A stretch of DNA of 64,000 nucleotides. Origin: Escherichia coli (GTDB lineage: Bacteria > Pseudomonadota > Gammaproteobacteria > Enterobacterales > Enterobacteriaceae). A program made the translations under genes and the position numbers. The stretch lies in the NCBI RefSeq assembly GCF_051903065.1, contig NZ_CP178438.1; one strand, 5' to 3'. Positions 25,283 through 25,636 of the stretch are shown here, piece by piece; the stretch's first letter is position 1, and each line of letters begins with the position of its first letter. Below the pieces are notes generated by a model. That model was not told the origin of the DNA and searched no databases. It worked only from the letters and a program-made list of their open reading frames with translations.

Positions 25283-25636
25283 CCAGTTCCGGATGATGGC
25301 GGTGATACGCCTGTTCCGCCAGACGACGGCGGTGATACGCCAGTTCCGCCTGATGACGGCGGTGATACGCCGGTTCCGCCAGATGACGGCGGTGATACGC
25401 CAGTTCCGCCAGATGACGGCGGTGATACGCCAGTTCCGCCAGATGACGGCGGTGATACGCCAGTTCCGCCTGATGACGGCGGTGATACGCCGGTTCCGCC
25501 AGATGACGGCGGTGATACGCCAGTTCCGCCAGATGACGGCGGTGATACGCCGGTTCCACCAGATGATGGCGGTGATACGCCAGTTCCAGACGACGGCGGT
25601 GATACGCCAGTGCCGCCAGACGATGGTGGCGATACC
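25283..25636 (+). repeat. in-frame coding tandem repeat, 12 units of 27-30 bp encoding PVP(P)DDGGDT
   Basis: Ten 30-bp and two 27-bp near-identical units read directly; they differ mostly at synonymous third positions. Confidence 0.95.

Follow-up and report, generated by a model that had tools for sequence, protein, structure and literature searches.

Pertactin of Bordetella pertussis, a classical autotransporter, carries polymorphic Pro/Gly-rich repeats in its regions 1 and 2. The Glu-Pro/Lys-Pro spacer of TonB and the Ala-Pro hinge of OmpA are Pro-rich, charged linkers that can vary in length without preventing folding, and acidic Gly-rich repeats, such as the RTX motif GGXGXD, bind Ca2+. 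The Salmonella protein BigA, to which E. coli YdbA is compared below, is cited in the literature only as a putative adhesin and is often a pseudogene. A literature search for the repeat analysed here or for its peptide found no paper describing it, and publications retrieved with 'ydbA' together with 'tandem repeat' or 'autotransporter' contained incidental mentions only.

The window, that is, the whole 64-kb stretch of E. coli DNA that was analysed, contains an array of twelve tandem units encoding PVP(P)DDGGDT within a gene that is, by its position and its domain architecture, E. coli ydbA. The gene order around the array is ldhA-ydbH-ynbE-ydbL, then ydbA, then pdxI-ydbD. Both BigA_N (PF25784, E = 6.5e-33) and BigA_beta (PF25783, E = 3.4e-24) were detected above the cut-offs, and an autotransporter beta-barrel (PF03797, E = 2.2e-18) was detected above the gathering score in residues 437-634 of the 3' fragment of the gene. 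The assignment to ydbA that had been made in an earlier note on this DNA was supported by the location of the gene between ydbH-ynbE-ydbL and pdxI-ydbD and by the presence of these three domains. Judged by its domains and its chromosomal position, the window ydbA belongs to the YdbA/BigA-type classical (type Va) autotransporters. Against the NCBIfam model for Salmonella BigA sensu stricto (NF033178), which has a cut-off of 3400 bits, the two ydbA fragments scored 283 and 820 bits. The features of the locus are listed in Table 1.

Table 1. Features of the ydbA locus in the window, in order of position.
Feature	Position	Strand	Remarks
ydbA 5' fragment	24986..28738	+	ATG at 24986 (MQRKK...), AAGGA upstream; ends at the IS1 insertion point
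Predicted Sec signal peptide, aa 1-21 (...SSQTWA|AD)	24986..25048	+	Cleavage site placed by eye; conserved N-terminal hydrophobic stretch
C41-P42 ... C60 segment	25106..25165	+	C41, P42 and C60 invariant in 26 family members; predicted short helices, pLDDT ~80
Gly/Ala-rich hydrophobic segment, aa 67-88, AVLPWAAAGLAAIATGIAIYTL	25184..25249	+	Conserved
DDDNHHH cluster, aa 90-96	25253-25273	+	Directly after the Gly/Ala-rich hydrophobic segment
Tandem array, 12 units PVP(P)DDGGDT	25283..25636	+	YdbA residues 100-217; unit string ABCDEECDEFGH
BigA_N beta-barrel domain, PF25784, aa 224-304	25655..25897	+	Immediately after the repeat linker
IS1, 768 bp	28739..29506	-	Interrupts ydbA; transposase ORF on the minus strand
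9-bp target-site duplication GCCGGGACG	left 28730..28738; right 29507-29515		Flanks IS1
ydbA 3' fragment: BigA_beta sandwich and autotransporter beta-barrel	29516..31627	+	

In the window, ydbL is the direct upstream neighbour of ydbA and the fea/tynA/paa cluster is not found upstream, unlike in K-12, in which paaK, paaX and paaY are located immediately upstream of ydbA and in which we take the whole fea/tynA/paa cluster to lie between ydbL and ydbA. The two ydbA allele classes are thus located in different upstream contexts. Within the region upstream of ydbA in the window (24579-24985), the stretch 24600-24900 has a G+C content of only about 25%. On the downstream side, ydbD (window 32941-35076) is annotated as frameshifted in E. 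coli 23CRST027, which is identical over the locus, and the ydbD ORF in the window has a GTG start and is shorter than the K-12 gene.

The window ydbA is, as read from its sequence, a pseudogene that is split by IS1 between the passenger and the barrel, and it is not an intact secretable gene. In silico removal of IS1 and of one copy of the target-site duplication yielded an intact ORF of 5865 bp (1954 aa), which shares 97-98.7% identity with the intact alleles of strains LH50-c and SM107, and the inactivation therefore looks recent. Since ydbA is inactivated by IS1 in the window, changes in array length there are without effect on a functional protein, and the array in this strain would drift neutrally. 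The earlier note had proposed that gain and loss of units would change protein length without inactivating the protein; the in-frame part of this proposal held, but the window gene had already been inactivated by IS1, which the note had missed. Inactivation of ydbA has occurred repeatedly: the window gene is disrupted by IS1 and the K-12 gene by IS2 and IS30, whereas the O157 gene carries a nonsense codon. In the O157/O55:H7 ydbA, a CAG-to-TAG change (GVC*, compared with GVCQEADEY in the window) cuts off the passenger from the barrel. In the O157 strain FDAARGOS_293, the nonsense codon is located at about position 10120 of the fetched ydbA locus, and the annotation of the O157/O55:H7 genomes divides ydbA into two CDSs, one for a 'proline-rich domain-containing protein' and one for an autotransporter barrel protein.

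The array comprises 354 bp, in which ten 30-bp and two 27-bp units are arranged head to tail in the ydbA reading frame; the two 27-bp units, units 1 and 11, are without one Pro codon. The coordinates and the count of twelve units reported in the earlier note were exact. Tandem Repeats Finder, which the note had suggested as a check, identified positions 25292-25642 with a period of 30, 11.8 copies, 90% matches and a score of 555. This is the sole strong tandem repeat in the window, in which one other array was found with a score of 50. Two minus-strand ORFs across the array (25236-25559 and 25247-25735) and a plus-strand ORF in another frame (25251-25676) were considered as genes and rejected as by-products of the stop-free repeat.

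The nucleotide differences among the 12 units of the window are all synonymous, and E. coli 23CRST027, an independent complete genome, has an identical string of 12 units (ABCDEECDEFGH) and is 100% identical to the window over the tested 1.2 kb. Short-read assemblers can collapse or expand arrays of near-identical 30-bp units spanning 354 bp, and on these general grounds the array, or its length, might be taken for an assembly artefact. We regard this as extremely improbable, because the unit string recurs in the independent complete RefSeq genome, because the synonymous differences give each array position its own identity, and because related genomes carry orderly, lineage-consistent alleles.

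Variation in the number of units was surveyed in 5426 complete E. coli genomes, which were searched with two joined 300-bp flanks from which the array was left out. The window-type allele was found in 373 of these genomes, always as a single copy and always on the chromosome. For 59 of the 373 carrier genomes, sampled at even spacing, array length was taken as the distance from one flank to the other, and unit counts were checked in 18 fetched loci by translation and by DNA typing of each unit. The array spanned 57-534 bp in the 59-genome sample, corresponding to 2-18 units and 12 length alleles, with 7 units in 34 genomes, 9 units in six, 4 units in five, 2 and 13 units in three each, 12 units in two, and 5, 8, 11, 14, 15 and 18 units in one genome each. 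All 18 arrays examined translate in frame and all lengths observed are divisible by three; the frame is thus kept and only the linker length changes. The expectation that in-frame gain and loss of units would change protein length between strains was borne out by this range of 2-18 units, always in frame, and the comparison of unit counts among strains, for which an identical number throughout had been named as evidence against active length variation, gave the 12 different counts listed above.

The array lengths followed lineages in some cases, with 9 units in all UK bovine Z strains (O157:H7) and 4 units in all members of a set of cattle strains. Typing of the units gave the strings ABCDI, ABABCDI, ABABABCDI, ABABCDDI, ABAI and AN in the O157/O55:H7 lineage, and another lineage had ABCDEEDEFFFGH, compared with ABCDEECDEFGH in the window. 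The strings differ by the gain or loss of single units, of the pair AB or of the triplet CDE, and the first and last units are kept. Six array lengths were found within the O157/O55:H7 lineage, while the 797-bp flanks differ by 0-1 nt, which indicates that the array changes far faster than by point substitution. The K-12-type allele (2404 genomes), which served as a control, has a non-repetitive, degenerate Pro/Asp linker, and its 700-bp span measured 700, 703 or 706 bp depending on the deep lineage, with no variation within lineages.

From these sequence comparisons, the array is a variable-number tandem repeat, i.e., a coding minisatellite. The possibility of a phase-variable on/off contingency locus was considered and rejected, since the units are multiples of three, the array is intragenic and every observed allele is in frame. 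In one frameshifted protein variant (P0013, of the P0007-type allele) the shift starts at the first repeat unit, and it looks like a rare indel.

The distribution of the linker beyond E. coli was examined by searching 1.84 billion representative proteins exhaustively with the ydbA N-terminal region as the query, which yielded only about 70 relatives; a word-indexed protein search with the N-terminal 335 aa gave 14 matches, mostly fragments. Family members named in these data are from E. coli, E. albertii, Citrobacter, Rahnella and Superficieibacter, and the long relatives have the same module order throughout. At the linker position, the 26 aligned relatives contain Pro/Asp/Gly repeats with a period of 6-10 aa and 0 to about 16 units, including DDGGNVTPP (about 16 copies), TPDDGGN (about 15), DDGGDTPIPP (about 8), as well as DPIPDPTP, VDPVDP and DNGGDNGD, and some members have almost nothing at this position. 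The E. albertii orthologue has a 27-bp unit of its own (DDGG[DN]VTPP) at the same linker position, and the full-length E. albertii proteins within one 90% identity cluster (P0016 and P0083-P0095) contain 3-16 copies, which accounts exactly for their lengths of 1796-1913 aa. A variable repeat number at this position is therefore a recurrent trait of the family, and neither a short nor a long linker is incompatible with an intact protein. Among the E. coli ydbA genes checked, the intact genes have 11-18 units and the nonsense-mutant lineage has 2-9, so that linker length could matter; however, intact E. albertii proteins with 3-6 units argue otherwise and contradict the proposal that intact genes need at least 11 units.

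The 118 residues encoded by the array (aa 100-217) consist of 36 Asp, 34 Pro, 24 Gly, 12 Val and 12 Thr, with a net charge of -36. Residues 1-340 were modelled with AlphaFold2 from a shallow 26-sequence family alignment, and the model predicted residues 100-217 to be coil with no secondary structure (pLDDT ~50-58), the BigA_N barrel (222-305) with pLDDT >90, and the hydrophobic segment (65-99) with pLDDT <50. Pfam and PDB searches of the repeat found no relative, and those of the repeat and of the N-terminal module (24986-25282, aa 1-99) gave sub-threshold, low-complexity matches only. By the alignment and the model, the repeat is an acidic Pro-rich linker that joins the conserved N-terminal module to BigA_N and is predicted to lie outside the beta-helix, and this linker is probably unstructured or extended. 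The location in the passenger domain that had been given for the array is accordingly to be corrected, as the array lies not in the beta-helix proper but in an N-terminal linker from the cap module to BigA_N, while the suggestion of a flexible stalk or spacer is consistent with the coil and the pLDDT of ~50-58 predicted by AlphaFold2. It is very probable, in our judgement, that the array is a coding minisatellite for a polyanionic Pro-rich linker located at the N-terminus of the passenger.

The second suggestion made for these units, a metal-binding spacer, found no such support, as the only Pfam match was sub-threshold and of low complexity. If the DDGGD units formed a metal-binding (e.g. Ca2+) domain, the repeat would be an ion-dependent structural element and not a passive spacer, as might be expected from the 36 Asp in 118 residues, from the conserved Asp/His cluster (DDDNHHH) directly upstream, and from the general precedent of RTX and other acidic Gly-rich repeats. 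Nevertheless, a 10-mer with three or four Pro is a poor fit to the RTX nonapeptide beta-roll, the Pfam search gave neither a calcium-binding nor another family, its only match being to the Spt5 CTD, below threshold and of low complexity, and relatives replace the unit by DPIPDPTP or VDPVDP repeats or by almost nothing, all of which makes metal binding quite improbable. The RTX calcium-binding repeat itself (GGXGXDXUX, beta-roll) was rejected as an identity for the decapeptide PVPPDDGGDT, which has 3-4 Pro and no Pfam calcium-binding match.

Returning to the spacer function, the linker would serve as a spacer that is flexible or extended and does not depend on an exact length, and functional-looking orthologues have linkers of a few residues to about 170. 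This tolerance of YdbA/BigA proteins constrains models of the role of the N-terminal module. Once the protein has been secreted by the type Va route, the N-terminal module would be held by the linker at the distal end of the passenger, as expected from established knowledge of autotransporter secretion and from a rough hydrophobicity sum. The summed apparent insertion energy of the hydrophobic segment was about +2.2 kcal/mol, with scale values that are reportedly those of Hessa et al. 2005, which suggests that the hydrophobicity of the segment is too low for it to arrest Sec transfer. A topology anchored in the inner membrane and spanning the periplasm, as in TonB, was rejected on the basis of the same value of about +2.2 kcal/mol and because stop-transfer downstream of a cleaved signal peptide would leave the passenger and the barrel in the cytoplasm.

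Units would be gained and lost via replication slippage or via unequal recombination between units, two routes that cannot be separated from sequence alone. The distinct unit types include 11 synonymous and 2 nonsynonymous variants, compared with 24:66 expected by chance (binomial p = 2e-5), and two further nonsynonymous unit variants were found at loci L015 and L017. The excess of synonymous variants among the unit types indicates that the repeat peptide has been constrained, which is not predicted by a pure 'any spacer will do' model. A second observation points the other way: the length of the repeat continues to change in the nonsense-mutant ydbA of O157/O55:H7, and variation in length thus needs no selection on an adhesin. 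The simplest reading is that repeat-intrinsic mutation acts on a linker whose composition is important and whose length is only loosely constrained.

Alternatively, the length variation might be adaptive, with selection acting on linker length or on epitope number in a surface adhesin, for immune evasion or for reach, along the lines of the polymorphic pertactin repeats. Expansions of 21-, 27- and 30-bp units that affect the same site of the protein in separate lineages, the varying copy number in intact E. albertii proteins, the constraint on the peptide evident from the synonymous excess, and the 11-18 units in the sampled intact E. coli genes would all be in keeping with such selection. However, six length alleles arose in O157/O55:H7, in which the nonsense-mutant ydbA is unable to make a secreted autotransporter, so that mutation alone is enough to explain the variation; in addition, ydbA has been pseudogenised repeatedly, by IS1, by IS2 and IS30, and by a nonsense codon, and the literature search gave no expression or immunological data. 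Adaptive length variation is therefore considered possible but doubtful.

It is also conceivable, although we consider it unlikely, that the variable linker is a tether of adjustable reach for the conserved N-terminal 'cap', which comprises the Cys-Pro...Cys segment, the hydrophobic segment and the Asp/His cluster. Were this the case, the cap would be located at the distal tip of a beta-helix of about 1700 residues, where its role might be insertion into a target membrane or the binding of a ligand, the unit number would set the reach, with a contour length of about 6-55 nm when fully extended, and the recurrent independent expansions of 21-, 27- and 30-bp units would reflect selection for an evolvable reach. 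The proposed action of the YdbA cap would resemble that of the GxxxG hydrophobic region at the N-terminus of VacA, another autotransporter.

The ydbA array is an ordinary coding VNTR in a surface-protein gene, which is a textbook class and involves no new mechanism. The locus may be of use as a typing marker, with at least 12 alleles, six of which are found inside the near-clonal O157/O55:H7 lineage. The locus also matters for annotation, because ydbA is split or mislabelled by automated procedures as 'proline-rich domain-containing protein', 'hypothetical protein' or 'EntS/YbdA MFS transporter', an inconsistency that is partly attributable to the repeat. The last of these labels is attached to the ydbA homologue in many RefSeq E. 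coli genomes (e.g. NZ_CP097360.1 and NC_017632.1), and it appears to be a mix-up of the gene names ydbA and ybdA that was spread by annotation.

Among the systems to which the locus can be compared, K-12 YdbA (the b4492 pseudogene) and Salmonella BigA share with the window protein the signal peptide, the CP...C segment, the hydrophobic segment, the Asp/His cluster, a Pro/Asp linker, BigA_N, the beta-helix, BigA_beta and the barrel, and K-12 ydbA has the same chromosomal position upstream of pdxI-ydbD. However, the K-12 linker of about 40 aa is degenerate, contains no tandem DNA repeat and is near-constant in length. K-12 MG1655 ydbA contains a large repeat, a 294-bp unit in 3.2 copies (positions 3053-4006 of the fetched K-12 locus), inside the beta-helix passenger, which the window allele is without.

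The VNTR/MLVA loci of O157:H7 (Vhec, TR and O157-n) resemble the ydbA array in that a strain-variable number of units marks clades, but the nine loci of one published size table have units of 6-18 bp, compared with 30 bp in ydbA. The counts of Vhec5 (7 repeats) and Vhec6 (6-9 repeats) are similar to those of the ydbA array. At the protein level, the TonB spacer and the OmpA hinge likewise connect two functional modules of an envelope protein by an extended, charged stretch rich in Pro. They are, however, periplasmic and are not tandem DNA repeats with copy-number variation in populations, whereas the YdbA linker should end up extracellular, at the tip of the passenger.

In conclusion, the closest analogue of the YdbA repeat is the set of Pro/Gly repeats of pertactin, as both are short in-frame repeats rich in Pro and Gly that belong to a type Va autotransporter passenger and occur in a number that varies between strains without destroying the protein. 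The two differ in that pertactin has units of 3-5 aa, located in loops of the beta-helix and documented as antigenic sites, whereas YdbA has strongly acidic units of 10 aa, which together make up a long linker on the N-terminal side of the helix, in a gene that is often a pseudogene.
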